Part shown: positions 661 through 54,969 of the stretch, piece after piece
Numbering within the stretch: the stretch's first letter is position 1
Layout: every line of letters starts with the position of its first letter
Virus record (IMG/VR): IMGVR_UViG_3300042478_001433
Source: an uncultured virus (IMG/VR IMGVR_UViG_3300042478_001433)
Taxonomy: Duplodnaviria; Heunggongvirae; Uroviricota; Caudoviricetes
DNA length: 64,000 bases
Reading direction: 5' to 3' (one strand)
Translations under genes and position numbers: made by a program
Notes under the pieces: generated by a model
Told to the model about the DNA's origin: nothing
Database searches by the model: none
What the model saw: only the letters and a program-made list of their open reading frames with translations

Positions 661-1138
661 TGCTATTTGATGGCGAAAAATAAAAGGCAAAAACACGCTT
701 ATGAGCATTTGCAAGTGTTTTATTTTCCATTTCAACCCACTCAACTATATCGCTGGCGTAATTGCAAATATCATTTGCGTTTATAACTGCCCATTCAAAT
801 GGCAGCAAAACCCATTTTGATTTGCCGCGCTCATCAACATGCGTCAATCGAGGCCGAAAGCGTTGACCGTCCCACCTGGGGCCCATGCTCCATTCTTGGT
901 CGCATCCATAAAAAGTAGATTCTCTAAGCAATCGTTCCCATGGGCTGCCATCATAATTTAAGCCATGAAAATTAATTGATTTATAAAATGAACATGCCGC
1001 GTAATCTGTCGCGGATTGCGCATTGCCTGGCAGCTCATCCGCGCCATCTATATCTTGCGCTTCGCACCAAGCCTCAACAACTGCGGCAATAGCATCAGGC
1101 AGCATCATGCCTTCAAGATCAATGCAAAACTTGCTCAC
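650..1138 (-). CDS. Hypothetical protein, AT-rich, present only in A
   Basis: GTG overlaps the helicase stop; absent between the same genes in B. Confidence 0.65.
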   Translation of the reverse strand: MSKFCIDLEGMMLPDAIAAVVEAWCEAQDIDGADELPGNAQSATDYAACSFYKSINFHGLNYDGSPWERLLRESTFYGCDQEWSMGPRWDGQRFRPRLTHVDERGKSKWVLLPFEWAVINANDICNYASDIVEWVEMENKTLANAHKRVFAFYFSPSNSSAF

Positions 1139-2496
1139 TTGACTTTGCTCCACTGTCCTTTGGTTTGGCGTGCGGCTAAGACGTGCTTTGCCCATGCGAC
1201 TGGATTTTTGTATCCCCGCTGCTGACCTAGTGCGATCAACTGCTGCAGCGTTTGAGCGCCGCTTTGCTCACGCCGCTTGGCGCGCATGGCTAGCTCCACC
1301 AGCTCCCCATCCACCTGCTGCAGCTCGCGTGCCTCGGCAGCGAACATATGCCCACACTCACCGCATTGCTTGGCCTGGCTGGCCATGGCGGCAAAGCAAC
1401 TGGGGCACACCTTGACGCTGGGTGCTTTCTCCCGATCCCGCTTGCGCTCGCCGTCCAAGCTCCACTCGCGCGGCTCTAGGTGATGGCCAAGCCGGAGCGT
1501 ATTGCCGACGTGATCCAGCACCACTGCTGCAGCCTTGCCGGGCGATGGCCTAAGGCACCGGCCGATCATCTGCAGGTGCAGGCTGGTGGATGCAGTGGGT
1601 CTGAGCAGGATGCAGCCGCCGACTGATGGAACATCGACGCCCTCGCCGATCAGTGCGCAGCTGGTGAGCACCTTGATCCGGCCAGTGCCTAGCGCCTGCA
1701 GCAGGTCACGCCGCTGCTCGCTAGTCATGCTGCCGTCAATACTGGCCGCGGCGATGCCTGCTGATTGGAAGAGTGCTGCCACTGCTTCCGCGTGCGCCAC
1801 AGAGCAGCAGAACGCGATTGCAGTCTGGCCCGATAGGTGCTTGCGGTAGTGGCCTAGGCAGTCGCCCATGATCGTGCCGACACGGTGCTCCGCCTCACGG
1901 GCGTCAAAGTCACCCATCCGCTTGCGCAGGCCGGTGGTGTCAAAACCCGGTGGCGCTAGCACCTTGGCCGCGGCGAGGTAGCCGTTGTCGGTTAGCCAGG
2001 CAGCGCTGGGACCTTCCACCATGACCTGATAGTGCTCGCCAAGGCCGCGGCCGTCGAGCCTGATCGGGGTTGCGGTGACGCCCAGCAGATGCGATTGGTG
2101 GAAATGCTCCAGCGTTTTGGCCCAGGTGCCGGCATTGCTGTGGTGGGCCTCGTCGATGATCACCAGCTGAAAGAAATCAGGCGGCAGTTTGTGCAGCCTG
2201 CGGGCAAGCGTCTGGACGCTGGCAACCTGCACTGCTGCGGATAGATCCATGCCGCGGTTGGCGGCGATCACGCCATGCGGCATCGGCAGTGAACGGCAGG
2301 CTTGATCCAGCAGCTCCTGCCGGTGAACGGCGATCAACACGCGGTTGCCCTTGCGAGCAGCGGATTGGGCGATGTGGCTGAAAATCACCGTCTTGCCGCC
2401 GCCGGTCGGCAGCACTGCCAGCACCTTGCGGTGGCCTAGCTGGTATTGCAGGCGGATGGCGGTGATCAGCTGTTGCTGGTAGGGGCGGAGGTTCAT
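1135..2496 (-). CDS. SF2 DEAH-box helicase with C-terminal Zn ribbon
   Basis: PTGGGKT, DEAH, TAT and QMIGR motifs, plus CPSC...CGEC. Confidence 0.92.
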   Translation of the reverse strand: MNLRPYQQQLITAIRLQYQLGHRKVLAVLPTGGGKTVIFSHIAQSAARKGNRVLIAVHRQELLDQACRSLPMPHGVIAANRGMDLSAAVQVASVQTLARRLHKLPPDFFQLVIIDEAHHSNAGTWAKTLEHFHQSHLLGVTATPIRLDGRGLGEHYQVMVEGPSAAWLTDNGYLAAAKVLAPPGFDTTGLRKRMGDFDAREAEHRVGTIMGDCLGHYRKHLSGQTAIAFCCSVAHAEAVAALFQSAGIAAASIDGSMTSEQRRDLLQALGTGRIKVLTSCALIGEGVDVPSVGGCILLRPTASTSLHLQMIGRCLRPSPGKAAAVVLDHVGNTLRLGHHLEPREWSLDGERKRDREKAPSVKVCPSCFAAMASQAKQCGECGHMFAAEARELQQVDGELVELAMRAKRREQSGAQTLQQLIALGQQRGYKNPVAWAKHVLAARQTKGQWSKVK

Positions 2497-2825
2497 AGAG
2501 GCAGCTCCAATTGCGTGCCATCTGCAGGTGTTCCGTGCATGGCAATTTGGGCCATAGTCACGGCACGGCGTTGCCGCTCGTATGCAGGCCGCGCATAGCC
2601 CAGCTGGTAAAGGTGCAGATCGTTCTGCAGCAAGGCAATGGCGACAGCTCGCCATGACGGCGCGCGGCCTGACGCAGCTACTTTGGCCGGCACCTCATCT
2701 GGAATCTCGTGCGAATAACAACGGGCTTTCCACGTGCGCACGTATTCCGAGACTCTGGCGGTAGCGCATCTCCCAGGCGCGAATGGCTCGATCCGCTTGT
2801 TGGTTTGCCAATGTCCGTTGCTCAT
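2493..2825 (-). CDS. Small protein resembling the DUF3440/IbrA C-terminal segment
   Basis: YVRTWKARCY..IPDE...APSWRAVAIALLQND parallels IRYWGRVG...SWKRFAITMLKND in 4027-5346. Confidence 0.65.
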   Translation of the reverse strand: MSNGHWQTNKRIEPFAPGRCATARVSEYVRTWKARCYSHEIPDEVPAKVAASGRAPSWRAVAIALLQNDLHLYQLGYARPAYERQRRAVTMAQIAMHGTPADGTQLELPL

Positions 2826-3120
2826 CGGTCAAAAGTCCCCATGCTTGTCTAATGATGTCTTCAGGGCATCGAAGGGCCAGCGCGCAGGCTGCGTGCCCGA
2901 TCCATGCTTTGCGGTTGAGGTTGTAGTCAGTCAGTGCATTGATGCAGCTGTTGGGCCATTCCACGGTGACCCGTTGCATGTAGCGCCCGTAAAGGCGGTG
3001 ATTGCCGGTGAAGATCTGTGCGCGATACAGAGCAATGCGTCGATTTGGCACATCGCCCCACATGTTGTAGCCGATCTCTTCCCAAGTATCAATGGGCAAC
3101 CAGATCCTTTTGAGCTTCAC
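2695..3120 (-). CDS. Hypothetical protein in the IbrAB-like cassette
   Basis: Overlaps both neighbours; Trp-rich (WEE...WPNSC...NRKAWIGHAAC); GTG start inferred. Confidence 0.7.
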   Translation of the reverse strand: MKLKRIWLPIDTWEEIGYNMWGDVPNRRIALYRAQIFTGNHRLYGRYMQRVTVEWPNSCINALTDYNLNRKAWIGHAACALALRCPEDIIRQAWGLLTDEQRTLANQQADRAIRAWEMRYRQSLGIRAHVESPLLFARDSR

Positions 3121-4030
3121 GTTCGAGATCCTCTGTGATGTTGTCGATCTGCTCAACGTCCCATGCCTTGCTGAAATCCTTGCCAAGGAATAGCGAGGCT
3201 AGACCGGTCACCTGTTTCAGGCGCAACAGCTCATCAGGGCTCATGCCAATATGCTTGCAAATCCATGCATCGCCTTTGCCCATCTCGATCAATTCGGCAA
3301 CGATCACGCTCATCAGTTCGATGTTGTGTGAACCACGAGCGCGGTTGTGACGGATGGTTGACGCCATGCGGTCATGGAGCTCCTTGCGGAGTACAACCAC
3401 TGGCAAGCGGCCACCTTCGCGTTCACGGATGCGTTGGCTGTTTTTTAGCGTCAGGTATCGATGAAAACCGTCAACGACCACATAAAGGTCACGCTCGGCA
3501 TCATGCACGACAACGACAGGTTGCGTGTAACCATCTTCCCAGATGGATGTTTCGAGTAGCGCCATTTCAGGCGGCGCCACAGAGTTGGGGTTGTAATCGT
3601 TGGCGGTAACTTTCTCAATAGGAATACTGCGAACAGAATAGACCGGGGATCGCCAAGGGTAAGAGTCGTTCTCGTCATGGAGTTCATTGCCTTTAAGGGG
3701 TGGGTTGAATACGCAGATCAACGTGGTGGGCTCTAAGGCTTCAAACGTGTGAGCATCGTGCTTGTCAAGCACGTAGGTCACGTCAGGGCCAATCGCGATG
3801 ATTTCTTGCGTGGTTTCATTGATCAGCAGACCTTTGCCGCTGACGCAGTAGCACGTTTCAAGGTGGTGTTGATAGTGCCAGCGGTGCGGCTTGCCAGGGT
3901 GAATAACGGTTTTAGTCATGCTGTAGCCCATGCCGTCGGTTTCGACGACAAGCCGATGACTGGTGAAACCACCACGTGGGCATTGCACAACGCGGTCATC
4001 AGGAAGTTGTGCGGCGTTCAGGATCTTCAT
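3089..4030 (-). CDS. EctC-like cupin fused to IbrB/ParB-like domain
   Basis: N-terminal HYQHHLETCYCVSGKG, YVLDKHDAH and CVFNPPLKGNELH match ectoine synthase; C-terminal ANDYNPNSVAPPEM, VVDGFHRY and STIRHNRARG match IbrB/YbdM. ATG overlaps the IbrA stop. Confidence 0.88.
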   Translation of the reverse strand: MKILNAAQLPDDRVVQCPRGGFTSHRLVVETDGMGYSMTKTVIHPGKPHRWHYQHHLETCYCVSGKGLLINETTQEIIAIGPDVTYVLDKHDAHTFEALEPTTLICVFNPPLKGNELHDENDSYPWRSPVYSVRSIPIEKVTANDYNPNSVAPPEMALLETSIWEDGYTQPVVVVHDAERDLYVVVDGFHRYLTLKNSQRIREREGGRLPVVVLRKELHDRMASTIRHNRARGSHNIELMSVIVAELIEMGKGDAWICKHIGMSPDELLRLKQVTGLASLFLGKDFSKAWDVEQIDNITEDLEREAQKDLVAH

Positions 4031-5346
4031 TTGGCGGAACGGTTGAGGACTTGGCTGTACTTGCGTTGGATTGATCTCTGGCGGCGCTGCTGCTCTTGCG
4101 TTGGCGCCAGGCCCAAGTATTTGCAGGTGTGGTCGTTCTTGAGCATTGTGATAGCAAACCTCTTCCAAGATGTGACCATGCTGTTGTGGCATGGCAGATC
4201 ATCAAGGTGGTCAGGCGGCACCTTGATCACTACGCGGCGCAAATTGTTGCCGCCGTGGCGCGTGGTGCCATTGATGTAAAAGCGAATGCCAATACGGCCA
4301 AGAGCTTCAATAATGGCATCAGGAAGACCGCGCCCCACCCTGCCCCAGTAGCGGATTGACTGGATGAAGCGCTGCTTAAAATTTGCGCTTGACTGATCCG
4401 GCAAGGTGGCCAGCAGGAACTTCACAAAGGATTTCCAAGTGTGGCCTGCGGGCAGCTTAAAGGATTTGTAATCAAGCTGTTTGCCGTAGGTAGCCATGAA
4501 GTTAGCACCGCCAACTCTCGCGCAAAGCCTCGCCCAGACCTGCGGGTCGATTACCCGATACATAGCAAGACTGGATTTGGACTCTGACATAAACGGAGAA
4601 GCAACCCGCATCTTTTTGATAGGAATGCCAGCCATGTAAAACACGTCATAAAGGTTGTTGTAATCCCATCCAAATTTGGCGTTAGCGGTCCAGATGTCCT
4701 CTGTGCGCCAGTCATAGATCGGATAGCAGTTGTAGGTATGCGCCGTGTTTTTCTTGGTCCACATGCGGCCAAGCATGGTCTCTTTCTCTTGATTCAGGAT
4801 GGCCCGAAAACGGTTGAGCGATTCAACGGTGCGAATGCCGATCAAGTTTGCGCAAGGCTCGCCATGGCTGTACCACTCCGCAAACATGTCCCAGAAAGTG
4901 GCGTAATCCATGTTCTCGATGAACAGGTCGCCAAAGGGATGGTTTTGGAGATTGACGATGTAATCCTGCTGCGGCATGGGGCGAATCCAGCGGTGACGGT
5001 CGGCTTCGCCCCAGCACTGCCAGTCAATTTCGTAGGAGGAAACGGTGCAAGGCAGGGTGATGGGCAGGCAGCACCAATAGATGTCAAGGATGTCCCGGTT
5101 GGCTTGGAGGATGCGATGCATGAACTCCTCGCTATGGGTGTAATTGGCCTCGTTGTCCATAATCTGAACGCCAATTTTGATCGGCAGCTTGCGCTCTCGC
5201 ACGTAGTCGCAAACAAGATTCAGAAGAACTCCGCTGTCCTTGCCACCAGAGAAGGAGACGTACACACGGGTAAAATGCTGAAAGATAAAGTCGAGCCGCT
5301 CAATAGCGGCGTCGTAAACATTTTGCTCTAAATAGGTTCTGCTCAT
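4027..5346 (-). CDS. IbrA/YbdN-like PAPS-reductase-fold (PP-loop) protein with DUF3440
   Basis: SFSGGKDS, GIRTVESLNR, YPIYDW and MRVASPF motifs. Confidence 0.9.
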   Translation of the reverse strand: MSRTYLEQNVYDAAIERLDFIFQHFTRVYVSFSGGKDSGVLLNLVCDYVRERKLPIKIGVQIMDNEANYTHSEEFMHRILQANRDILDIYWCCLPITLPCTVSSYEIDWQCWGEADRHRWIRPMPQQDYIVNLQNHPFGDLFIENMDYATFWDMFAEWYSHGEPCANLIGIRTVESLNRFRAILNQEKETMLGRMWTKKNTAHTYNCYPIYDWRTEDIWTANAKFGWDYNNLYDVFYMAGIPIKKMRVASPFMSESKSSLAMYRVIDPQVWARLCARVGGANFMATYGKQLDYKSFKLPAGHTWKSFVKFLLATLPDQSSANFKQRFIQSIRYWGRVGRGLPDAIIEALGRIGIRFYINGTTRHGGNNLRRVVIKVPPDHLDDLPCHNSMVTSWKRFAITMLKNDHTCKYLGLAPTQEQQRRQRSIQRKYSQVLNRSAK

Positions 5347-5513
5347 GAGTTGGGTAGATACTCTTTTGTTACGTCTTGAATTTCAAGAAGATCGCAACCT
5401 TTGTATGATTTGGCAAAGCCAATCCGCAATTCCGCCTCAGTAGCGAATTGAGTGGTGTTAACCACGCATTTGCCCCAAGGGCGTTGGTAGGTGATTCGGT
5501 AAATAGGGTTCAC
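5343..5513 (-). CDS. Small hypothetical protein
   Basis: Stop overlaps the IbrA start; GTG start inferred. Confidence 0.5.
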   Translation of the reverse strand: MNPIYRITYQRPWGKCVVNTTQFATEAELRIGFAKSYKGCDLLEIQDVTKEYLPNS

Positions 5514-5536
5514 AAGCAGGCGCAGCCGTGGGGTGC

Positions 5537-5572
5537 CTTGCAACCTTAGCGACTTTGGCTAAGCTTGGCAAG
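5537..5572. promoter_or_regulatory. Palindromic divergent promoter/operator
   Basis: TTGCAA-N16-TAAGCT on + overlaps TTGCCA-N17-TAAGGT on -; counterpart at 49315-49350. Confidence 0.6.
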
Positions 5573-5587: not shown

Positions 5588-5725
5588 GTGCACCCCATCT
5601 CAGTTTTGTTCACGCCGCAACAGATGCAGTGGCTAGACCGGCAACGCGCTGCTGGCCTGTCCCGCAGCGCAGTAATCCGCCTTGTGGTTGAGGAAGCCAT
5701 GCGCCGCGCCAAGGAGTCCGAGTGA
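5588..5725 (+). CDS. Ribbon-helix-helix (CopG-like) regulator
   Basis: ISVLF...WLD...SRSAVIRLVV pattern; stop overlaps the primase start. Confidence 0.7.
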   Translation: MHPISVLFTPQQMQWLDRQRAAGLSRSAVIRLVVEEAMRRAKESE

Positions 5726-7791
5726 ACCTGCGCGATGAGTTAAACCGCCTGCCCGATGGGTGGGGATACGTTGCTGTTGACGGCCAGAAGCGGCCGTATC
5801 AACTCAAGTGGCAGGACAACCCACTAGATAAAGCCAGCCTGCAGGCCGAACTTGATTCCGGTCGCGCTCGTGCTATCGGTGTTTGCTGTGGTGTGCCATC
5901 TGGTGGCCTGCTGTTCCTAGACCACGACGGCCGCAGCGCTAGCACCATCCTTCGCGACTGGGGTTGTCCCATGTCGTCGTTGCCGCGTTCGTGGACTGTT
6001 ACCTCCGGTCGTGACGGCAGGTTTCAGGTCATCTACCGCGTACCAGAGGAGTATTGGCATGGCATCGCCACACGCAAATACAAGTCAGGTGTCACCGACT
6101 CCGACGGCAAGCCCGAGCAGGTGGAGCTCCGTTGGACCGGCTGCCAGTCTGTTGTAGCCGGCGCGCACCCAACCACCAGCGGTTACCGCTGGGTAGCCAA
6201 ATACAGCCCCGAAGACCTCGACCTAGCCGAGGCGCCGCTTTGCCTGATCGAGCGGATGCTTAAGCCAGTGGCCGAACCGGTGGTCTTGCCACCAGTAGCG
6301 CATGGCGCTGACGATGCCGCCCGGGCGCGTTCTTACCTCGAAGCCCTGGCCAGCAGTCGCGCTGATGACTACGACGACTGGCTAGCCGTTGGGATGGCGC
6401 TCCATAGCGTTGGCGATGACGCCTTGCTAGACGACTGGGAGCAGTGGTCAGCGCAGTCCGGCAAGCACAAGCCCAGTGATTGCCAGCGCAAATGGCGCAG
6501 CTTCAAGAAATCCGGCATCAGCCTTGGCACCCTTGGCGACATGGCCAAGAAAGACGGCTGGCGACCCCATCGGCGTGAGCCGCAGCGCAGGGTTGCGACA
6601 GGCGGCGGCAGTGGTGACAGCGATGCCAATGCGCCGATCATCACGAAACCGGAAAAGCTGGAAACCGCAGAGCTATTGGCACTGCTACGCAGTCAAACCG
6701 ATGAGATCCGCTACAACGTCTTCACCCAACAGATCGAAATCAAGGGCAAGGTCATTGATGGCGCCGACCGCTTTTACCTGAAGCTGGCAGAGATGGGCTA
6801 CAAGGTCGGCAAGGAGCTGGCTATTGACTGCCTTGTGCAGGTCGCCAACGAGAACCCCTACGACCCCGTAACCGAGTACCTGACCCATTGCGAGCAGCAC
6901 GTTCAGCCGGCTTACATCGACGGCCTTGCTACCGCATACCTTCGCCCAGAGGACCAAGGCGGTGAGACCACGATCTACGACGAGATGCTTAAGCGCACCA
7001 TGATCGGTGCTGTTGCTCGTGCCTTTGATCCTGGTTTCAAGCATGATACCGCTTGCGTGATCATGGGCGATCAAGGTGCATACAAATCCAGCTTCTGGGG
7101 CTGTTTGGGTGGTCCGTTTTACTCAGATGCGTTGGGTGACATCAGCACCAAAGACGACGTAATGGTGCTCCATCGGTCATGGATAATGGAATGGGCGGAG
7201 CTTGATCACATCACCAATCGCAAGCACGCTGGACAAGTCAAGGCGTTTTTATCGCAGGCGGTAGATCTGCTCCGCGTGCCATATGGCAAGGCTGTTGAAG
7301 CATTCCCAAGGCGTGGCATCATTGTTGGCACCACCAATAAAACCGCTGGTTTTCTTGTAGATGAAACCGGCAACCGTCGTTTTTGGGTGATACCAACAAC
7401 CCGCACACAGGTGGATCAAATCAATACCGCCATGCTCTTAATGGAACGTGATGCCATCTGGTCTGCAGCGGTTCATGCCTACCGCAACGGTGAAACCAGC
7501 CGGCTGCCGGCTGCCATGGAGCTTGCCGTTCAGCAGGAAAACGATGCCTACATGATCGAGTCGCCATGGCGTGCCGCCATCCTTTCCTACCTCGCTGATC
7601 GCCGCAGCACTGACCTGCTGACCTCCGAGGAGATCCTCGCCAAGGCCATCCAGAAACCCATGGAGCGCCAGTCCAAGGCCGACCAGATGCAGGTGGCTTC
7701 GATCCTGAAGGAGCTGGGTTGGGCGAAACGCCGCGAATCGACCGGCAAGAGGCGCTGGTACTACCAGTTGGACGGCCAACATGCCGGCTAG
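5722..7791 (+). CDS. Primase-polymerase + PriCT-2 + VirE-type helicase
   Basis: FLDHDG Prim-Pol motif, YDDWLAVGMALH PriCT-2 motif, GDQGAYKS Walker A, DETGNRRF. Confidence 0.9.
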   Translation: MNLRDELNRLPDGWGYVAVDGQKRPYQLKWQDNPLDKASLQAELDSGRARAIGVCCGVPSGGLLFLDHDGRSASTILRDWGCPMSSLPRSWTVTSGRDGRFQVIYRVPEEYWHGIATRKYKSGVTDSDGKPEQVELRWTGCQSVVAGAHPTTSGYRWVAKYSPEDLDLAEAPLCLIERMLKPVAEPVVLPPVAHGADDAARARSYLEALASSRADDYDDWLAVGMALHSVGDDALLDDWEQWSAQSGKHKPSDCQRKWRSFKKSGISLGTLGDMAKKDGWRPHRREPQRRVATGGGSGDSDANAPIITKPEKLETAELLALLRSQTDEIRYNVFTQQIEIKGKVIDGADRFYLKLAEMGYKVGKELAIDCLVQVANENPYDPVTEYLTHCEQHVQPAYIDGLATAYLRPEDQGGETTIYDEMLKRTMIGAVARAFDPGFKHDTACVIMGDQGAYKSSFWGCLGGPFYSDALGDISTKDDVMVLHRSWIMEWAELDHITNRKHAGQVKAFLSQAVDLLRVPYGKAVEAFPRRGIIVGTTNKTAGFLVDETGNRRFWVIPTTRTQVDQINTAMLLMERDAIWSAAVHAYRNGETSRLPAAMELAVQQENDAYMIESPWRAAILSYLADRRSTDLLTSEEILAKAIQKPMERQSKADQMQVASILKELGWAKRRESTGKRRWYYQLDGQHAG

Positions 7792-8303: not shown

Positions 8304-8451
8304 ATCCATCACCCAGGCATTGGCTTACGCCCATGCCATCCGCGACAACGCACAGGACGACAGCCAGCCGATCCCGTTGGAACTCGTTGGTTCGTTTCAA
8401 GTTGATTGCGACGCCATCATCAACGCCTTATCCGAAGCTGCTGCACAATGA
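8239..8451 (+). CDS. Conserved hypothetical protein
   Basis: Homolog at 52044-52253 (IPAKQxPVINRLHE). Confidence 0.7.
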   Translation: MSSQDSISIPAKQSPVINRLHESITQALAYAHAIRDNAQDDSQPIPLELVGSFQVDCDAIINALSEAAAQ

Positions 8452-9494
8452 AATTCACCTGCTCACAGGCCGACCTGTCCCATGCTCTCCGCGCTGTATC
8501 CCGCGCTGTAGGCACCGGGCGCTCTGGCCATCCGATCCTTGCTGGCGTACTCCTCGCTGCTGATGCCGGCGCCGTACGCATCACCGCTTACGACCTCGAC
8601 CTTGGCATCAGCACCGCCATCACCGCTGCTGTAAACACCGCTGGCGCTTGCGTGGTACCCCATCGGCTCCTGGCGGACATCACAGGCCGTCTGGACGCTT
8701 CTGAGGCGCTGTCGCTGGCTGTGGACGGTACACGCATCACGCTGACCGCTGCAGGCGGCTCCTACAGCCTCTCCGTGGCCTCTGCGGAGGATTTTCCTGC
8801 ATTGCCCGTGGTGGATGCTGCTGCAGGCGCTGCTGTGGACCTCACAGCGCCATTGGCGGCCGTATTGCCTGCTGCTGCCACCGACGCGTCTAAGCAGCTG
8901 CTGACCGGCGTGCACGTCACCATCGCAAGCGGTGCCTTGCGCCTTGAGGCCACAGACGGCCATCGACTTGCCGTGCGTACCGCCGACACCGATGCCGCAG
9001 ACCTCGACCTCGTGTTACCCGCTCGCACCCTGCAGCAGATCCGTCAGCCGGCCACCATCACCGCAGACAAGCATCAGGCCGCTATCGCCCTTGCTGATGG
9101 CACCATGATCGTCTCGCGGTTGCTGGATGGCATCTACCCCAACGTGCAAGCGCTGGTACCCGCCAGCTACGAGCACACGGCTACCGTTAGCCGCCTTGCC
9201 ATGCTGGCTGCACTTGAGCGCGTAGCCGTCATTGCCGACAGCCACAACAGCGTCGTCAAGCTCACCACCAAAGCCAAGCGACTCACCATTGCCGCCGAGG
9301 CCGAAGCCAACAGCGGCTCAGAGTCCATTGCCATGGATGGCACGCTGCCCACGCTTGCCTTCAACGTGCATTACCTCATTGATGCCTTTAAGCATCTCGA
9401 CGGTGATACTGCTACTATCAGCGGCAACACCTCAACTACCCCTGTAGTATTTGAGCCTGGTCTTACACTGGTAATGCCAGTTCAGGTACGCTGA
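8448..9494 (+). CDS. dnaN: DNA polymerase III beta sliding-clamp homolog
   Basis: HPILAGVLL, EATDGHRL, SRLLDGIYP, FNVHYLID and LVMPV motifs. Confidence 0.9.
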   Translation: MKFTCSQADLSHALRAVSRAVGTGRSGHPILAGVLLAADAGAVRITAYDLDLGISTAITAAVNTAGACVVPHRLLADITGRLDASEALSLAVDGTRITLTAAGGSYSLSVASAEDFPALPVVDAAAGAAVDLTAPLAAVLPAAATDASKQLLTGVHVTIASGALRLEATDGHRLAVRTADTDAADLDLVLPARTLQQIRQPATITADKHQAAIALADGTMIVSRLLDGIYPNVQALVPASYEHTATVSRLAMLAALERVAVIADSHNSVVKLTTKAKRLTIAAEAEANSGSESIAMDGTLPTLAFNVHYLIDAFKHLDGDTATISGNTSTTPVVFEPGLTLVMPVQVR

Positions 9495-35667: not shown

Positions 35668-36717
35668 ATGAGCAACTTCCTCGCTGCCGCCAAGTGGACC
35701 GATAAGCAGGCGCCACAGCCACATCAAATTGCGGCGTGGAATACGGCATGGCAATGGCTCACCCTTGGGCAGCAGGCGGAATTCCTAGAAATGTTCCGTG
35801 CTGCACCGGTAATGCCTGCAGCGCCATGGCTTGAGCCAGCGCTCAAGGTCATCCGCGAATTTGAAGGCTTGCGGCTTGAGGCATACCGATGCCCAGCTGG
35901 CGTGCCAACCATCGGCTATGGCTCCACGCGGTTGATTGATGCACCAGTGCGCATGGGCGACAAGATCACGCAGCAGATGGCCGAGGAGCTGCTTTGCGAT
36001 CAAGTCGAAAACCTATTCGCCCCTGGCCTATTTGGCCTACTGCCTTTGATGAAGGCATGGAAACCCAATCAGCAAGCTGCGCTGGTGTCTTGGGCTTTCA
36101 ATGTAGGACTTGGTGCCGTAGAGGAGTCCACGTTGCGCAAGCGGCTGGCGGCTGGCGAGGCGCCCAGCGTAGTTGTGCCAGAGGAATTGCCCAAGTGGGA
36201 TAAAGCTGACGGCAAAACGCTAGAAGGGCTGGCGAGGCGCCGTGCCGCTGAGGTGCGGTTATTTACTGGCAATCTTGAGCATCAACAGCAACCGGCCAAG
36301 TTGACGCCATCTAGTTCGTTTGCATCGCGCATCACGCCACACATCACGCTAGGTGAATTCGCATTGAACCAAGAGGCGCGGCGCTTTGATGCGCAGCATC
36401 AAGTGAACACAGCGGCCGAGCTTGCTGCATTCATGGAGCGGGCACGGTCTGCATTTGGTGGCAAGCCTGTGATCATCACCAGCGGCTATCGGCCAGCGGC
36501 AATCAACCGATCAGTAGGTGGCGCCAGTAGCTCAGAGCACCTGTACAACGCGCCTAACGTGGGCGCCGTGGACTTTTACATCCAAGGCGTTGACATCAAT
36601 AAGCTGCAGGCATGGTGCGACAAGGAATGGCCGTATAGTCTTGGCTACGGCGCACCCAAGGGCTTTGTGCATCTTGGCATTCGCGCTGGCCGCCCTAAAG
36701 TCCGCTGGGATTATTGA
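35668..36717 (+). CDS. Endolysin: GH24 lysozyme + peptidase M15A
   Basis: EFEGLRLEAYRCPAGVPTIGYG...GLARRRAAE, then ITSGYR..N..VGGASSSEH..AVD..FVHLG. Confidence 0.9.
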   Translation: MSNFLAAAKWTDKQAPQPHQIAAWNTAWQWLTLGQQAEFLEMFRAAPVMPAAPWLEPALKVIREFEGLRLEAYRCPAGVPTIGYGSTRLIDAPVRMGDKITQQMAEELLCDQVENLFAPGLFGLLPLMKAWKPNQQAALVSWAFNVGLGAVEESTLRKRLAAGEAPSVVVPEELPKWDKADGKTLEGLARRRAAEVRLFTGNLEHQQQPAKLTPSSSFASRITPHITLGEFALNQEARRFDAQHQVNTAAELAAFMERARSAFGGKPVIITSGYRPAAINRSVGGASSSEHLYNAPNVGAVDFYIQGVDINKLQAWCDKEWPYSLGYGAPKGFVHLGIRAGRPKVRWDY

Positions 36718-37232
36718 TGATCATTCCTGACCACGAGATTTGCCGCCTGTGCAAGCAACATGCAATGGTGGTGCCGTATAACGCAGAACTGCAGAACCCA
36801 TCATCCCTTGATGTGCTGCTCGGCGACAACCTAATGGTGGAAGTGGAGCACACTGCAGACCTGCAATTGCTAAGCATTGCGCACCATACAGAGGCGGATC
36901 CTTACTGGCTGGCGCCTAGTGAGTTTGCGCTAGCTGAGACGCAGGAGTTTTTTAACCTGCCAGATCACATTGCCGCGCAGTTTGTACTGAAGTCCAGCCG
37001 CGCAAGGTCTGGCCTAGAGCACCTGCTTGCTGGATACTGTGACCCAGGCTGGCACGGCAGTCGGCTCACATTAGAACTACACAACAGCCGTCGTTATCAC
37101 AACATTGCATTGTGGCCCGGCATGAAGATTGGCCAGATGGTGTTTCATGCCATCGCTGGCACGCCAGAGCGCACCTATGCAGTAACCGGACGGTATAACA
37201 ACGATTCAATCGTCACTGCCTCGCGCGGATAA
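36717..37232 (+). CDS. dcd: dCTP deaminase
   Basis: NPSSLD, KSSRARSG, AGYCDPGWHG, TLEL and PGMKIGQM motifs. Confidence 0.9.
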   Translation: MIIPDHEICRLCKQHAMVVPYNAELQNPSSLDVLLGDNLMVEVEHTADLQLLSIAHHTEADPYWLAPSEFALAETQEFFNLPDHIAAQFVLKSSRARSGLEHLLAGYCDPGWHGSRLTLELHNSRRYHNIALWPGMKIGQMVFHAIAGTPERTYAVTGRYNNDSIVTASRG

Positions 37233-37370: not shown

Positions 37371-37626
37371 GTCTTGGGGCCAGTGGATGATTGTGGAACT
37401 ATCAGTAGAGGATCAACTACGGATAGAAGGGCAGGCAAGAGCTGCCCTTGCCCATGATGACCCTAGCCAAGTGGCACATTTATGCGCGTCGCTGATTCGT
37501 CAAAATGCGTATCAATCTAAGCTAATCCAGCAGGCAACTGGTCATATTGCCAAACTAGAAATGGAGCAGTTTTTAAGCTGCTCCAAACCAAAGCGATGGT
37601 GGCAGCGACTGCTACGCCACCAGTGA
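37369..37626 (+). CDS. Helical protein, candidate NblA-like
   Basis: ELSVEDQL...SQ...L...L.RQ spacing resembles NblA. Confidence 0.45.
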   Translation: MSWGQWMIVELSVEDQLRIEGQARAALAHDDPSQVAHLCASLIRQNAYQSKLIQQATGHIAKLEMEQFLSCSKPKRWWQRLLRHQ

Positions 37627-38499
37627 TGGCTGCAGAATCAGCCTTAGCTTGCGTTGCGCACGTTGCGCACGCTGTCTGACGCGCTCTCTGCATACACCAA
37701 GATTGCGGCCAATTTCGGCATAACTTTCTGGTGTTTCACAGCCAATGCCATAGTTTCTACGCACAACATCCCTATCAAAGGGATCTAGGCGAAAAAAAGC
37801 CAGCTGCAGCTGCTCAACGCGCTCACAAATCTCTTCAGGGTTGTGGTCTTCATCAATGCCGTACTCGTCGGCAATCATGTCCAGTATTGTGCTACCATCT
37901 TCGGTGATCAGTGCATCTAGGCTTCGGTGTGGCCTATTGCGCTCCATCAGCATCAATAGCTCATCTGTTTTGATGTTGAGGATGTCGGCCACTTCGCGGA
38001 CAGTAGGCGTGCGGCCATTGGCTTGCGCAAACTCACGTTGGGTTTTGGCAGCAGCGTAAGTTTTCTCTAGCGCGTGTTGCGGCACTCGAATCAACCGCTC
38101 TTTGGTATCAATGGCGCGGGTAATGGCTTGGCGAATCCACCAGTAGGCATAAGTAGAAAACTTATACCCTTTAGTGCCGTCAAACATCTCCGCGGCACGA
38201 TGCAGGCCCAGTGCTCCTTCTTGGATCAAGTCCATTAGATCCATGTTGTTGGACTGCAGCCGGGTGACGTACCGCTTGGAGATATGAACCACCAAGCGCA
38301 AGTTGCAATTGATGATCATGTCACGCGCGCGAATGCCAACGCGGATCTCGCGTTGTTCTTGCTTGGTGCGTTCGCCTTTGGCGTCACGCAGCTCAAGGTA
38401 TCGCCGCACTTGACGCGACAGTTGAATTTCCTGCTCAGCCGACAGCAATGGATATCGGCCGATGGCGGTGAGGTACTGCTTGAACGAGTCGGGCGTCAT
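37612..38499 (-). CDS. RpoD/group-2-like sigma70 factor
   Basis: YLTAIGRYPLLSAEQE, NLRLVV, DLIQEG, KGYKFSTYAYWWIRQAITRAI and RERVRQ motifs. Confidence 0.93.
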   Translation of the reverse strand: MTPDSFKQYLTAIGRYPLLSAEQEIQLSRQVRRYLELRDAKGERTKQEQREIRVGIRARDMIINCNLRLVVHISKRYVTRLQSNNMDLMDLIQEGALGLHRAAEMFDGTKGYKFSTYAYWWIRQAITRAIDTKERLIRVPQHALEKTYAAAKTQREFAQANGRTPTVREVADILNIKTDELLMLMERNRPHRSLDALITEDGSTILDMIADEYGIDEDHNPEEICERVEQLQLAFFRLDPFDRDVVRRNYGIGCETPESYAEIGRNLGVCRERVRQRAQRAQRKLRLILQPSLVA

Positions 38500-45230: not shown

Positions 45231-45583
45231 CCCTGTGCAACATCTCTTAACAATGTCTCCGCATCACTGACCGAGCGCGCCACGCCCGCAATGCCGCCAG
45301 CCGCCTGGACTGCATCCATCCACTGCTGCTGCTCAGGGCGCAGCCTGCCGGTTGCGGTCTTGACCTCTATGGATAGGAATACCGCCACGGTGCTGCCGAC
45401 CATCTCGGGCGTAATGGTGACGCGCTTCCAGCCGATCAGGTCAGCGCTGCCCTTGCACAGGCCGAACTGAACCGGGCGGCCATTGGCATCACGCAGCGTG
45501 CCGGTGTTGTTGCGGAACAGGCGCGTGTCACCGTTGCTGCAGGCGATGCGGATCTCTTGCTGGATGGTTTGCTCAGATGCCAT
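45227..45583 (-). CDS. VRR-NUC nuclease (B)
   Basis: Near-identical to 304-660. Confidence 0.85.
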   Translation of the reverse strand: MASEQTIQQEIRIACSNGDTRLFRNNTGTLRDANGRPVQFGLCKGSADLIGWKRVTITPEMVGSTVAVFLSIEVKTATGRLRPEQQQWMDAVQAAGGIAGVARSVSDAETLLRDVAQG

Positions 45584-46919
45584 GCCTCTTAGCCAGTCGC
45601 GCCTGGTAGACACGTTCCGCCCATCCTCGCTTGTAGCCGCGTTGCTGCGCTAGCTCGCGGAGTGCATCCAGGTCGCGGGCTGAGGATTGCTCACGCCGCT
45701 TAGCCACTGCCATCTCCACCAACTCACCATCCACCTGCTGCAGCTCGCGGCGTTCCTGCGGCGCAAACACATGGCCGCACTCGCGGCATACCTGCGCAGC
45801 ACTGGCGCTGGTGGCGAAGCACTGCGGGCAGACCTTGACCGATGGCGCTACCTCGCGGTCGCGTTTTTTGATGCCGTCTAGGGTCCAGTCTCGTGGTTCT
45901 AAGTGGTGTCCCATCCTGAGCGTGTTGCCGACATGATCGAGCACCACGGCGCGCTTGCCGGGTTGCGGGCGCAGACATCGGCCGATCATCTGTAGGTGGA
46001 GGCTGGTGGATGCCGTGGGGCGCAGCAGGATGCAGCCGCCGACGCTTGGCACGTCCACGCCTTCCCCGATCAGCGCGCAACTGGTGAGCACTTTGATTCG
46101 ACCTATTGCCAGATCAGCCAATAGCTGCCTTCTATTGGCTGCATCCATGCTGCCGTCAATACTTGCAGCTGAGATGCCTGCTGACTGGAAGAGTGCTGCC
46201 ACTGCCTCCGCGTGCGCCACTGAGCAGCAAAACGCGATCGCCGTCTGACCTGGCAGGTGCTTGCGGTAGTGGCCAAGGCAGTCGCCCATGATCGTGCCGA
46301 CGCGCTGCTCAGCCTCCTTGGGGTCGAAATCACCCATCCGCTTACGCAAGCCGGTGCTATCGAATCCCGGCGGTGCCAGCACCTTGGCAGCCGCAAGGAA
46401 TCCGGCATCTGTGAGCTGCTGTGCCGTTGGGCCTTGCACCATGGATTGATAGTGCTCGCCAAGGCCGCGGCCATCCGAGCGGATCGGTGTTGCGGTGACG
46501 CCGAGCAGCTTGGCGGCTGCAAAGTGCTGAACCACCTTGGCCCACGTGCCAGCCGTGGTGTGGTGTGCCTCATCCACCACTAGGAGCTGGAAGAAATCAC
46601 GCGGCAGCAGGTGCAGCCGGCGAGCAACGGTTTGCACGCTGGCAATCTGCACGGCATGGCTGAGATCCATGCTGCGGCCAGCGCTGATACGGCCATGCGG
46701 CATGGGCATAGCGCGGCTGGCCTGATCCAGCAGCTCTTGCCGGTGCACAAGCACCAGCACGCGGTTGCCCTTGATGCTGGCTTGCTCTGCGATGTAGCTG
46801 AAGCACACTGTCTTGCCGCCGCCGGTCGGCAGCACCGCAAGCACAGATTTATGCCCTAGCTGATACTGCAGGCGGATGTCGTTGATCAGTTGTTGTTGGT
46901 AAGGGCGGAGGTTCATCAT
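45573..46919 (-). CDS. SF2 DEAH helicase (B)
   Basis: Same motifs as 1135-2496. Confidence 0.92.
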   Translation of the reverse strand: MMNLRPYQQQLINDIRLQYQLGHKSVLAVLPTGGGKTVCFSYIAEQASIKGNRVLVLVHRQELLDQASRAMPMPHGRISAGRSMDLSHAVQIASVQTVARRLHLLPRDFFQLLVVDEAHHTTAGTWAKVVQHFAAAKLLGVTATPIRSDGRGLGEHYQSMVQGPTAQQLTDAGFLAAAKVLAPPGFDSTGLRKRMGDFDPKEAEQRVGTIMGDCLGHYRKHLPGQTAIAFCCSVAHAEAVAALFQSAGISAASIDGSMDAANRRQLLADLAIGRIKVLTSCALIGEGVDVPSVGGCILLRPTASTSLHLQMIGRCLRPQPGKRAVVLDHVGNTLRMGHHLEPRDWTLDGIKKRDREVAPSVKVCPQCFATSASAAQVCRECGHVFAPQERRELQQVDGELVEMAVAKRREQSSARDLDALRELAQQRGYKRGWAERVYQARLAKRHGI

Positions 46920-47040
46920 TGGATTCAATGACTTTCGTAATTCGGTTCATCTGGCAAATAACAACGCCGCCACATTGAAAGCCATCTGTGCATCATGTTG
47001 ATCTTTGCTTCTGAGCAGTTTTGCGTCAACGATTGATTGC

Positions 47041-49299
47041 TCACACCAGCTCCCCCTGACGGTTGCTGGCCACCTCAACCAGGTTCTTGACCGCGCAGTT
47101 GAAATACGAAGGCTTCAGCTCAAAGCCGACAAATTGGCGCCCGGCTTGGATGCTGCAGTAACCCTCGCTGCCGATGCCGGCGAATGGGCTGAGCACCACG
47201 TCGCCAGGGTTGCTCCATAGCTGTAGGCCGCGGCGGATCACCTCAAGTTGCAGCGGGCAGATGTGACGCTCATCCTCATTGGCGCGTGCGCTGCGGTATT
47301 GCAGCGTGTCGGATGGGTTGATGTCCATCCACACCGGGCTGGCGTAACGCTGCCAGATGTTGATCGAGTCCTTAATCGGGTCGCCGCTTTTGGCTGGCGG
47401 GTTCTCACCAGCAAACTCCGTGAACGGGCCAGCCACCGGCTCTGGGTTGTCGCCCAGCTTGCGCACGGTCACGAGGTAGTCAGGGATGCCCTGGCGGCTG
47501 AGTGCTGAATCCTTACGCACTTGCTTATGCAGCAGGCCGATTGCCTTGGTGCGCTGCATTGCGGTGACGGGATCCTTCCAGATGCACACCTCGCTATGAA
47601 AGACAAAACCAGCAGCCTGGAAGATGCGCAGCATATCGCCGCGGAAATCCTTCACACCGATGAAACCATCGCGTTCTTTGCTGCTGGGCAGGTTCATGCA
47701 GTGGAAGCTGATCAACCGGCCAGGCATCATCACGCGATGCAGCTCGCTGGCAAGGAATCCAAAGTGATCAAAGAACTCCTGCTCAGTGCGGCTGTTGCCC
47801 ATATCGCGGTCGCTGTTGCTGTAGGTGTAGAGCGACGCAAACGGCGGGCTGAAAATGCTGTAGTGGATGGAGTTACTGTCGAGCTGCTTGATGCTCTCCA
47901 CGCAATCGCCCATATACATATCCCATCCATCACCGGACTTGTGCTCAGTGATGTGCGGCGCCACTTGGCGTTGGATCTTTTTGAGTTGCTCCATTGTTTG
48001 TTGCTTCATGATTTCAACCATTGATTGAGCCATTTGGATGCTGTCCGCTTCCTTGCGGCGGATGTTGTCGATCACGCGACCTTCAGCCACGTCGTAGATG
48101 ATGTGAGCGTTGACGGGTTGCTCTTGCCCAAACCGCCAGCACCTACGGATGGCTTGATAAAAAGCCTCATAGCTGTGACTCAAGCCAACAAATGCGACGT
48201 TGTGGCAGCGCTGGAAGTTGAGGCCAAAGCCAAAGATGCTCGGCTTGCTGACCAGTACGCGAATCTTGCCGTCTTGGAAGTCAATGGCGGCCTGCCGCTT
48301 GTGGTCGTCGCTGTCGCTGCCTGACACCTCAACCGCGCCATCAATGGCAGCAGTAAGCGCCTTTGATTCATCGTTCAGGTCACACCAGATCAACCACTGC
48401 TCGGTGTTGCTGTTGGCGAGCTTGGCAGCGGCTGCAACGCGGAGGCTGAGTGATGCCTTGCGCACCTTGCGTTGATCGTTAAGCGTGCGGGCCTCCATGG
48501 CAAATAGCGCCATCTGGCCGTCATCACCTGCTGTTGCCTCGCGTGGTGTCTCGACCGTGCAGTCTTGGATCTGCAGTGCCGGCAGGATGAAGCTGCCATC
48601 GTCGTAGCCAAGGTCTGATGGCTTGCGGATCGTGACTGCCCAGCTGCAGACCCACTCCCAGAACTTGTCCCGCGCGTGACCCTTGAGCCGCCACTTAGCA
48701 GTGTCGCCGCCGTCATGCACAAAGAACATGGCCAGCATCTCAGTGCGGGTCATCACGCCGATGAACTCGGCATGGTTACCAAGCTCCATGTGGTCATTGG
48801 GTGCTGGCGTGGCGGAGCAGGCCAGGCGGAATGGAGTGAGGCTGAATGACTCGATGATCTGGTTGCGGATCTTGCCGGTGTATGCCTTGAGGATGCTGCT
48901 CTCATCCAGCACCACGCCATCGAAGGCGGATGGGTCGAAGTGGCTCAGCTTCTCGTAGTTGGTGATCGTGATGCCGGGCTTGACCTCGGCCTGCGTGGCA
49001 GCGAACGCGCATGGGATGCCGAACTTGCTGCCCTCGCGCACGGTCTGATGTGCAACGGCAAGCGGTGCCAGCACTAGCACGTTGGCGCCAGTGTGCTGAT
49101 GCACCTGATGCGCCCACTCAAGCTGCATGGCGGTTTTGCCCATGCCGCAGTCGGCCCAGATACAGAACTTGCCAACGCGGCAAGCCATGGTCACGATGTC
49201 CCGCTGAAACGGGAACAGCGGCGCGGTGAACTGCTGCGGGTCAAAGCCGGCAACAGGTGCTGCAGTGGATTTGGAAGCTAGGAAGTCTTGGTAGGTCAT
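47041..49299 (-). CDS. SNF2-like helicase fused to N4/N6 DNA methyltransferase
   Basis: DCGMGKT, LDESS, SATPAPN and QAIRRCWRFGQ, then FSPPF (motif IV) before SPFAGIGS (motif I). Confidence 0.9.
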   Translation of the reverse strand: MTYQDFLASKSTAAPVAGFDPQQFTAPLFPFQRDIVTMACRVGKFCIWADCGMGKTAMQLEWAHQVHQHTGANVLVLAPLAVAHQTVREGSKFGIPCAFAATQAEVKPGITITNYEKLSHFDPSAFDGVVLDESSILKAYTGKIRNQIIESFSLTPFRLACSATPAPNDHMELGNHAEFIGVMTRTEMLAMFFVHDGGDTAKWRLKGHARDKFWEWVCSWAVTIRKPSDLGYDDGSFILPALQIQDCTVETPREATAGDDGQMALFAMEARTLNDQRKVRKASLSLRVAAAAKLANSNTEQWLIWCDLNDESKALTAAIDGAVEVSGSDSDDHKRQAAIDFQDGKIRVLVSKPSIFGFGLNFQRCHNVAFVGLSHSYEAFYQAIRRCWRFGQEQPVNAHIIYDVAEGRVIDNIRRKEADSIQMAQSMVEIMKQQTMEQLKKIQRQVAPHITEHKSGDGWDMYMGDCVESIKQLDSNSIHYSIFSPPFASLYTYSNSDRDMGNSRTEQEFFDHFGFLASELHRVMMPGRLISFHCMNLPSSKERDGFIGVKDFRGDMLRIFQAAGFVFHSEVCIWKDPVTAMQRTKAIGLLHKQVRKDSALSRQGIPDYLVTVRKLGDNPEPVAGPFTEFAGENPPAKSGDPIKDSINIWQRYASPVWMDINPSDTLQYRSARANEDERHICPLQLEVIRRGLQLWSNPGDVVLSPFAGIGSEGYCSIQAGRQFVGFELKPSYFNCAVKNLVEVASNRQGELV

Positions 49300-49314
49300 G
49301 GCAGTGTGCAGCCA

Positions 49315-49350
49315 CTTGCAACCGTAGCAGCTGTTGCTACGCTTTGCAAG
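49315..49350. promoter_or_regulatory. Palindromic divergent promoter/operator (B)
   Basis: CTTGCAACCGTAGCA-GCTGT-TGCTACGCTTTGCAAG. Confidence 0.6.
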
Positions 49351-49366
49351 CCTGTAGTCGAAACCA

Positions 49367-49504
49367 GTGCGCCTTAGCCATCCAACGCATATACGCCTGA
49401 CTCCAGACCTATTGCGGCAACTGGATTATTGGCGTGGTGATCGCATGAACCGCGCCACCGCCATCCGACTGCTGCTGGAGCAGGCACTCAAGGAGTCCAA
49501 GTGA
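49367..49504 (+). CDS. RHH regulator (B)
   Basis: THIRLTPDLLRQLD...NRATAIRLLL; coupled to the primase gene. Confidence 0.7.
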   Translation: MRLSHPTHIRLTPDLLRQLDYWRGDRMNRATAIRLLLEQALKESK

Positions 49505-51567: not shown

Positions 51568-51782
51568 GTGGGTGCGGACGGCGAGATCCATTGCGGTGAC
51601 TGGGTTTTGAGCCGTCCTATCCCCGTCTGGTCCTACATAGGGTTTAAGAGTTTCCTAATCCCCCTCCCCCTCCCCCTCTTTATCCCATTTTATTAAGAGG
51701 TTAGGACGGTAGGACGGTAGGACAAGCCCAGTGGCCGCAAGGCGTCTCACCGTCCGAACCCCGCAAACTGCGTTAGGACGCC
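51558..51782. repeat. Putative origin with TAGGACGG iterons (B)
   Basis: gttaggacggtaggacggtaggac plus inverted ccgtccta copies. Confidence 0.55.
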
Positions 51783-51820
51783 GCTTTTTGCCTATGCTCC
51801 GCCTCGATTGGAACCACTGA

Positions 51821-52102
51821 ATGCCCGAAATCAAGATCAATGTCACCGCTGACGACCTGGCGCGGTTGAACGCTGAAGCAGCAGCACATGGCATCCCGCG
51901 CGCGCACCTGATCCGGCAGCGTGCTTTGAGCGGTGGGGTTGTTGCAGGATTGACCACGGCGGCTTACCATGCGCTGGTGGCGGACGCCTGCGCCTTCATG
52001 CGTGGTGACCTGAACCGCCGTCACGTTGAAACTCTCGTTGCATATGTCATCGCTCATTCACATTCCAGCCAAGCAGCAACCGGTGATCAATCGGCTGCAT
52101 GA
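51821..52102 (+). CDS. RHH-like protein (B)
   Basis: Homolog of 8010-8303. Confidence 0.65.
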   Translation: MPEIKINVTADDLARLNAEAAAHGIPRAHLIRQRALSGGVVAGLTTAAYHALVADACAFMRGDLNRRHVETLVAYVIAHSHSSQAATGDQSAA

Positions 52103-52253
52103 GACCATGACCCAAGCAGTGGCGTACGCCGCAGCCATTGCCGACAACGCCATTGATGACGGCGTACCGCTACCCATGGAGCTTGTGGATAGCTTCGCCG
52201 CTGATTACGAACGCATCATCACCAGCCTCGTCACTGCCGCCACCGTCAAATGA
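52044..52253 (+). CDS. Conserved hypothetical protein (B)
   Basis: Homolog of 8239-8451. Confidence 0.7.
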   Translation: MSSLIHIPAKQQPVINRLHETMTQAVAYAAAIADNAIDDGVPLPMELVDSFAADYERIITSLVTAATVK

Positions 52254-53290: not shown

Positions 53291-53293
53291 TAC

Positions 53294-54963: not shown

Positions 54964-54969
54964 GCAAGG

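Follow-up and report, generated by a model that had tools for sequence, protein, structure and literature searches.

A stretch of 64,000 nucleotides from an uncultured virus of the class Caudoviricetes (IMG/VR record IMGVR_UViG_3300042478_001433), referred to here as the window, contains a gene in which an ectoine-synthase-type (EctC) cupin domain is fused to an IbrB-type ParB protein. Residues 15-126 of the encoded protein are a true EctC-family domain, while an entire IbrB-type ParB protein is found in residues 126-313. The gene is part of a cassette that also codes for an IbrA-like PP-loop enzyme, two small proteins and a helicase (Table 1). Our best reading, which is based on sequence and structure comparisons, is that the EctC domain would serve as a tailoring cyclase within a cassette for the replication-coupled modification of nucleic acid. 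In this proposal, which we regard as possible but somewhat short of probable, the protein would be an active, iron-dependent EctC-type cyclodehydratase joined to IbrB, serving as one enzyme of a coupled nucleic-acid-modifying cassette and not producing the osmolyte ectoine for salt stress.

The start codon of the fusion gene overlaps the TGA of the upstream IbrA-like gene as ATGA. A longer frame of 367 amino acids is not used by relatives; among the matches listed, most full-length relatives have a length of 296-320 amino acids. The Pfam family Ectoine_synth (PF06339) was found at residues 15-126 (2e-36, 125.5 bits with a cut-off of 27) and the NCBIfam model PRK13290 'ectoine synthase' yielded 132.9 bits with a cut-off of 128. 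Four solved EctC sequences match the domain at approximately 1e-22, among them 5bxx at 6e-23. An AlphaFold model built from 39 family members has predicted local distance difference test (pLDDT) values of 80-96 across the EctC part. The best matches of this model in the Protein Data Bank (PDB) are EctC structures (5bxx_B with E 1.4e-13, a template modelling (TM) score on the target of 0.94 and a root-mean-square deviation of 1.0 Å), whereas generic cupins reached only about 1e-7 in the same search. The initial annotation of the window had named a generic cupin unrelated to EctC as the finding that would speak against its assignment. This identity was ruled out, since the Pfam and NCBIfam scores are above the cut-offs and EctC is the closest solved fold. 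All motifs quoted in that annotation are found in the translation.

The C-terminal half is matched by Pfam ParB_N (PF02195) with 22.7 bits, which is weak and below the cut-off of 26.3. It matches PHROG 2159 'ParB-like partition protein' at 4e-78 and, over 168 residues, shares 63% identity with the IbrB that Streptococcus phage CHPC1230 encodes as a free-standing protein. The latter protein begins at query residue 126, where the EctC domain stops. When compared by Foldseek, the IbrB part matched KorB (8qa9) at 1e-7. The in-frame connection of EctC with an IbrB-type ParB, as proposed from the sequence in the initial annotation, is thus borne out by the open reading frame (ORF) of 313 amino acids and by the Pfam, NCBIfam, PHROG and structure matches.

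The fusion is not a product of assembly. Seventeen lake-water metagenome runs from 2020-2024 contain at least half of the sampled words of the region. For an independent check, contigs were taken from three lake-water runs other than the three possible source runs. These contigs span all 30 bins of positions 2600-5400 with zero indels and zero joints, and the differences among them are substitutions, often three bases apart. Both PF06339 and PF02195 are present in 118 of 120 relatives, which are 66-97% identical (among the matches listed). Based on the indel-free independent contigs and the two-domain architecture of these relatives, an assembly or frameshift artefact, which had also been raised at the outset, was rejected. 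At the RNA level, run X20 yielded nothing over the region and the three RNA runs contain just 6% of these words.

The protein belongs to a widespread family that is annotated yet uncharacterised. At least 8000 scored metagenome protein matches were obtained for it, and a scan of viral contigs yielded 256 loci encoding a relative. The statement in the initial annotation that no EctC-ParB fusion had been described has to be corrected with regard to sequence records: gp104 of Mycobacterium phage Gaia (KJ567043) has been annotated as 'ectoine synthase/ParB multidomain protein' in GenBank since 2014, and a product of Pseudoalteromonas phage XCL1123 carries the identical label. As an annotation, the architecture is therefore not new. 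A literature search found no paper describing an EctC-ParB fusion or the function of its cassette.

The residues of the active site were mapped by alignment to solved EctC proteins and then followed through 122 fusion proteins (120 for the position of Trp21). According to the accessible sections of a study on the EctC of P. lautus (PMC6344544), Glu57, Tyr84 and His92 bind the metal, Trp21, Arg25, Asn38, Thr40, Tyr52 and Glu57 contact the substrate, and Ser23, Asn38, Tyr52, Glu57 and Phe106 contact the product. The same sections report Trp21 as fully conserved across 437 EctC proteins of ect clusters, with the W21A variant keeping 9.7% of the activity. The fusion domain retains 10 of 12 catalytic-core residues: S24, R26, T41, Y53, H56, E58, Y86, H94, C106 and F108 are conserved in 121-122 of the 122 proteins. 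The metal ligands E58, Y86 and H94, the Glu/Tyr/His set that had been recognised in the initial annotation, are invariant (122/122). The two fixed changes are Trp21 to Phe and His/Asn38 to Thr. Phe occupies the first position in 114 of 120 proteins (Phe22 in the window, as noted earlier), while Thr is found at the carboxylate-contacting position 38 in 121 of 122 (Thr39 here; Asn in P. lautus, His in S. alaskensis). The C-terminal lid of EctC is conserved in the fusion family as well. Such invariance of metal ligands and pocket residues is what one expects of a working active site.

Compared to bona fide EctC from ectABC(D) clusters (P. lautus 5onm/5onn/5ono; S. alaskensis 5bxx/5by5), the fusion domain has the same cupin fold (TM 0.94) at 36% identity. 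The iron ligands Glu, Tyr and His are shared, as are Ser23, Arg25, Thr40, Tyr52, His55, Cys104 and Phe106. It differs in the exchange of Trp21 for Phe and of His/Asn38 for Thr, in its separate clade and in the lack of ectA and ectB. Unlike its bona fide counterparts, phage-type EctC is fused to or located beside IbrB and, in the loci inspected, always lies in an IbrA cassette. In a reference set of canonical EctC proteins encoded just upstream of canonical EctD (n = 42), Trp is found in 40, and position 38 is occupied by His (39 proteins) or Asn (3 proteins). The Phe/Thr signature is shared by stand-alone EctC-like proteins of about 125 amino acids, which are 50-61% identical to the fusion domain.

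Judged from these sequences, the EctC domain is a member of a separate phage clade. In a quick IQ-TREE search, a single branch with a Shimodaira-Hasegawa-like approximate likelihood ratio test (SH-aLRT) value of 100 splits canonical from phage-type EctC. Fused and stand-alone proteins are interleaved inside the phage clade, and well-supported branches force at least three changes between the two states. Split EctC and IbrB genes were seen directly in phage XCL1123, in one viral locus (L093) and in a Gallionella metagenome-assembled genome (MAG; L099). The stand-alone EctC of L093 (4872..5396 of that locus) features a canonical-like His at position 38, Ser for Cys104 and Phe at the Trp21 position. 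We read the phage-type EctC as a probably active enzyme with an altered substrate that has repeatedly been joined to and parted from IbrB. The earlier suggestion of a solitary EctC repurposed for cyclisation or dehydration of a non-ectoine substrate holds in outline, since a repurposed cyclase or dehydratase is compatible with the two fixed substrate-contact changes and with the placement in an IbrA/IbrB cassette.

The same annotation had stated that neither ectA nor ectB is present. In agreement with this, aminotransferase and acetyltransferase Pfam families were matched by none of the 78 window ORFs scanned. EctA did not exceed the cut-off in any of three cassette-carrying MAGs, all of which are incomplete.

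The IbrA-like protein was identified by Pfam and PHROG matches (Table 1) and has the PP-loop motif SGGKDS. Cys93, Cys100, Cys275 and Cys408 are invariant in the alignment of relatives. Cys93 and Cys100 belong to a cysteine cluster at residues 92-111, in which C92 and C111 occur in at least 90% of the proteins, and Cys408 is located in the C-terminal tail. These cysteines presumably resemble Fe-S sites and the catalytic Cys of 3'-phosphoadenosine-5'-phosphosulfate (PAPS) reductase, so that sulfur chemistry would be possible. Weak NCBIfam matches of IbrA include TtcA and CysD, and PHROGs places it in the category 'moron, auxiliary metabolic gene and host takeover'. PADLOC returned nothing for the fusion protein and only weak DndC/BrxP matches for IbrA. 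In 80 of 81 related loci, the gene directly precedes the fusion gene, and the single miss ends 58 bases upstream. The closest relatives also share a short ORF of 66 amino acids directly before IbrA, which is absent from the more distant cassette carriers.

The third gene, encoding 141 amino acids, shares 32 bases with the 3' end of the fusion gene and is immediately downstream of it in all 81 loci. Across these loci, including those with differing or rearranged helicase and primase genes, IbrA and the 141-amino-acid gene are retained. The 141-amino-acid protein has 528 homologues, none of which is named, and its N-terminal extension is conserved. Its model is all-helical with a pLDDT of 90.4 and a predicted TM score (pTM) of 0.83. 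Pfam, PHROG and PADLOC gave zero matches, and searches with the fold yielded a best E of 1.5 (Foldseek against the PDB), a best Z of 3.8 (VIA-align wide) and nothing usable in the ESM Atlas. Within the phage collection, the gene occurs only in four fusion-bearing records and in Pseudomonas phage Amjad_SA, where the homologue sits between a ParB gene lacking EctC and IbrA.

The fourth gene is a small ORF whose product resembles the C-terminal part of DUF3440, i.e. the IbrA tail (BLASTP E 0.002); copies from related loci match DUF3440 weakly (3.7e-5 to 7.8e-5). The protein ends in Q-L-E-L-P-L, a peptide resembling a beta-clamp-binding motif. The tails vary between loci and are mostly Q-x-x-L/M-F or Q-L-x-L-x-L, a pattern that agrees with the consensus for beta-clamp binding. 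A scripted Q-x-x-L/M pattern flagged 63 of 91 tails, and more were recognised by eye, in a count made without a control for chance. The TGA of the small ORF overlaps the ATG of the helicase gene as ATGA, as read directly at the junction. The helicase homologue of the second phage in the window (unit B, see below) has 451 amino acids and no N-terminal extension. The true helicase start is likely the ATG at 2496, which would be translationally coupled to the small ORF.

As a whole, the cassette is located in the replication module, divergent from the primase gene and coupled to the helicase gene. With its own gene for a DNA polymerase III beta sliding clamp, the phage has a possible docking site for the predicted clamp-binding peptide of the small ORF. 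In unit B, the helicase-primase slot that is taken by the IbrA cassette in the first phage is occupied by a gene for a fusion of a superfamily 2 (SF2) helicase and an N6-N4 DNA methyltransferase. This protein also matches phrog_67 and phrog_498 'DNA methyltransferase'. Among 80 cellular loci with IbrB relatives, EctC is present in only 3 and IbrA in 75; in 32, the gene before IbrA is related to SNF2. Helicases of the SNF2 or SF2 type recur as neighbours. Proteins with likeness to ParB are known as partners of DNA-modifying enzymes, namely DndB and DpdB (PMC12839542, accessible sections).

Three related loci contain an EctD-like gene, either between IbrA and EctC (L093, L090) or after IbrA (L096). 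The L093 gene (P0513, 324 amino acids) precedes a stand-alone EctC gene. Its product matches TIGR02408 'ectoine hydroxylase' at 8e-85 (284.5 bits with an equivalog cut-off of 336.5) and the solved EctD 3emr at 1.2e-76, and keeps 16 of 17 positions of the EctD signature as given in the accessible part of PMC5924519. The copy in L090 is more divergent (TIGR02408 9e-51, 172.8 bits with the same cut-off of 336.5) and keeps 15 of these 17 positions. In this locus, a sugar O-methyltransferase domain of the MycE/TylE type (3ssm, 3e-29) is inserted between EctC and IbrB. L096 features the small genes, IbrA and the EctD-like gene in a different order before the contig ends. When viral contigs were scanned with one EctD-like protein, only the query itself was recovered, while a two-sequence alignment yielded 3 loci. 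A metagenome scan for EctD found 80 canonical loci. In 59 of them, a canonical EctC gene lies upstream, and none has IbrA or IbrB. Cyclase, hydroxylase and O-methyltransferase in one cassette read like the successive tailoring of an ectoine-like ring.

On the proposed reading, the cassette consisting of IbrA, EctC-IbrB, the 141-amino-acid protein, the clamp-motif protein and the helicase would modify nucleic acid, likeliest the phage DNA at the replication fork. IbrA would adenylate a carbonyl or carboxyl group, by which a side chain is installed or activated, and IbrB would contribute the binding of DNA or nucleoside triphosphates. The EctC domain could then close an N-acyl-diamino-acid-like side chain to an ectoine-like cyclic amidine ring, which in some relatives may be hydroxylated by the EctD-like enzyme and subsequently capped by the O-methyltransferase. 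A more specific form of this scheme is a new DNA hypermodification, in which a clamp-tethered complex at the replication fork installs a side chain by IbrA and closes it by EctC to a tetrahydropyrimidine ring on a base of phage DNA, hydroxylated and O-methylated in some phages, by enzymes recruited from a solute pathway. In this narrow form, we consider the scheme rather unlikely.

Several points weigh against the proposal. The AlphaFold model shows no fixed contact between the EctC and IbrB domains (pTM 0.42), which makes any channelling between them conjectural. The pocket of EctC is small, closed and lidded, which makes a DNA-borne substrate, one of those suggested in the initial annotation, sterically demanding; a free small molecule could be the substrate before transfer. 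The clamp-motif count is uncontrolled for chance and many of the tails come from close relatives. Genes for making diaminobutyrate or an acyl donor are not encoded in the cassette according to the Pfam scan, and no report of an unusual base in phage Gaia or XCL1123 was found in the searchable literature. In addition, the GenBank label of IbrA and IbrB as 'co-activator of prophage gene expression' would suit regulation.

This label leads to the view that the cassette acts on another target, such as RNA, the deoxynucleotide pool, a protein or a host immune signal, with an anti-defence or regulatory outcome and with EctC processing the respective substrate. The PP-loop superfamily also acts on tRNA and small molecules, in line with the weak TtcA and CysD matches, and the PHROGs category of IbrA points in the same direction. 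However, the cassette lies between primase and helicase, is coupled to the latter by ATGA and has a DNA methyltransferase in its slot in the sister phage. With SNF2/SF2 helicases as recurrent neighbours and a small ORF with a clamp-binding-like tail, these features argue for DNA, and a different target appears fairly unlikely to us. A purely structural part for EctC, as dimerisation module or small-molecule sensor of an IbrB that is without the C-terminal dimerisation domain of partition ParB proteins, would agree with the head-to-tail dimer described for EctC (PMC5924519, accessible part). Many phages have IbrB without EctC, making the latter an add-on, and other N-terminal add-ons of IbrB exist (HNH, pyrophosphatase, DUF4942). 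A non-catalytic domain is nevertheless difficult to reconcile with the invariance of metal ligands and pocket residues across 121-122 of 122 proteins, or with EctC being equally often a separate protein. An EctD-like enzyme and an O-methyltransferase are only sensible if a product is made and processed further. We therefore regard this explanation as improbable, and as the weakest of those considered.

Slightly less improbable, though still quite unlikely, is the production of a free metabolite. In this case, EctC (with the EctD-like enzyme where present) would make ectoine, hydroxyectoine or an analogue from a host precursor, in an auxiliary metabolic role or as cofactor or inhibitor, and being fused to IbrB would merely ensure its joint regulation or localisation. 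The PRK13290 score above the ectoine-synthase cut-off and the complete metal site with 10 of 12 core residues are compatible with this, and the EctD homologue of relatives, in which 16 of 17 signature positions are kept, points to a ring closely resembling that of ectoine. As far as the accessible sections of the respective studies go, the EctC pocket suits small molecules (PMC6344544) and a solitary EctC from P. syringae was able to complement an ectC mutant (PMC5924519). On the other hand, Trp21, which is critical for activity in the accessible data of PMC6344544, is replaced by Phe throughout the clade. Neither ectA nor ectB was found among the phage ORFs scanned, and phage-clade EctC never occurred outside an IbrA/IbrB cassette among the loci inspected. 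Lake water is a habitat with an unlikely need for osmoprotection. Together with the absence of EctA from the three incomplete carrier MAGs and the loss of Trp21, this habitat argues against a simple osmolyte function. A nucleic-acid-modifying cassette with EctC as its cyclase remains the reading we tentatively prefer.

The closest described relatives are found in phages with hosts in other phyla. Gp104 of phages Gaia and Nebkiss has the same architecture and is 67.9% identical over residues 1-293, and the corresponding value for XCL1123 is 63.1%. Gaia (gp103-gp106) and XCL1123 share the PAPS-reductase-like gene upstream. The homologue of the third gene is gp106 in Gaia (56% identical) and the XCL1123 counterpart is 57% identical. 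Gaia differs by an additional gene, gp105, between the fusion gene and the third gene, whereas EctC and ParB are two coding sequences in XCL1123. No functional study of the cassette of Gaia, Nebkiss or XCL1123 was found in the literature search. IbrA/IbrB pairs of other phages and prophages (e.g. CHPC1230; PHROGs 2302 and 2159) likewise have IbrA upstream of IbrB, often with a helicase nearby, but lack the EctC domain.

Among modification systems, the phosphorothioation system Dnd combines the ParB-like DndB with the PP-loop/PAPS-reductase-like DndC, while Dpd combines the ParB-like DpdB with the transglycosylase DpdA for the insertion of 7-deazaguanine (PMC12839542, accessible sections). Both arrangements are reminiscent of IbrB and its partner IbrA. 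The matches of IbrA to DndC models are weak, however: TIGR03183 gave 21.5 bits with a cut-off of 290.4, which does not support membership in Dnd. Homologues of DndA, DndD, DndE and DpdA, including cysteine desulfurase and SMC-like proteins, were not detected among the window ORFs scanned, and Dnd and Dpd systems contain neither EctC nor EctD. Solitary EctC-type proteins (Czech et al. 2018, PMC5924519) are likewise without ectAB, and the accessible part of that study leaves their function unresolved. The survey therein covers complete cellular genomes, and the same part says nothing in this context on ParB fusions or on phages.

EctC and EctD count as the hallmark of ectoine and hydroxyectoine synthesis, and both routinely serve to identify osmolyte producers and, in viruses, 'auxiliary metabolic genes'. 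In the present case, EctC and EctD-like enzymes of a distinct clade form part of a cassette in the phage replication module, together with the PP-loop enzyme, the ParB-like protein, the helicase and the clamp-motif protein. Since this clade keeps none of the context of the ectoine-synthesis pathway, its members should not be annotated as genes for ectoine synthesis or salt stress. If DNA modification proves true, it would constitute a new type of hypermodification chemistry and would provide a function for the long-unexplained IbrA/IbrB pairs. Cultured test beds are available with phage Gaia on M. smegmatis mc2 155 and with XCL1123.

Table 1 Features of the window that are discussed in the text, with coordinates in nucleotides of the window
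Feature	Coordinates	Strand	Details
EctC-IbrB fusion gene	3089..4030	minus	translation of 313 amino acids (P0001)
EctC (ectoine-synthase-type cupin) domain	3653..4030	minus	fusion residues 1-126; profile, sequence and structure matches
IbrB-type ParB/Srx-fold part	3089..3652	minus	fusion residues 127-313 and stop codon; phrog_2159, CHPC1230 IbrB, KorB fold
IbrA-like PP-loop enzyme	4027..5346	minus	439 amino acids; Pfam DUF3440 1.4e-53, PAPS_reduct 1.2e-8; phrog_2302 2e-109
Third gene	2695..3120	minus	141 amino acids with GTG start (alternative: 122 amino acids, ATG at 3063); in 81/81 loci
Fourth gene, small ORF	2493..2825	minus	at most 110 amino acids; overlaps 3' end of third gene; homologue in 91 of 93 loci, some of which are repeat entries of the same contig
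SF2 helicase (ResIII + Helicase_C)	1135..2496	minus	Pfam, phrog_16
Short ORF upstream of IbrA	5343..5543	minus	66 amino acids
Primase	5722..7791		divergent from cassette
DNA polymerase III beta sliding clamp, phage-encoded	8406..9494	plus	Pfam, all three beta-clamp domains
Region of dCTP-deaminase-like and sigma-70 factor genes	36714..37232, 37612..38499	plus, minus	
SF2 helicase/N6-N4 DNA methyltransferase fusion, unit B	47041..49299	minus	752 amino acids; Pfam N6_N4_Mtase 2.4e-13 and helicase domains

The window appears to combine two phages. Positions 1 to about 45030 correspond to a complete phage genome that is near-identical to the virus record G001 (45,032 bp, with terminal repeats). 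The part from about 45500 to 64000 represents the first approximately 19 kb of a second, related phage, which is either physically joined or concatenated. The order of helicase, primase, beta clamp, terminase and portal genes is the same in the second phage. A dCTP-deaminase-like gene (Pfam DCD, 2.3e-29) is located beside the lysis genes, and a gene for a sigma-70 factor with all four regions is present in this phage as well.

A gene of 419 amino acids related to SNF2 stands before IbrA-IbrB in gut Alphaproteobacteria and other MAGs (the 32 of 80 cellular loci given above), while Bacteroidales feature a gene of 137 amino acids without Pfam match in that position (30/80). P0168, an IbrB relative from the 50%-identity library, has an N-terminal inorganic pyrophosphatase domain (4.3e-36), which would fit a PP-loop partner that releases pyrophosphate. 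Other IbrB relatives carry HNH, LAGLIDADG or DUF4942 domains, and P0259 is fused to IbrA.

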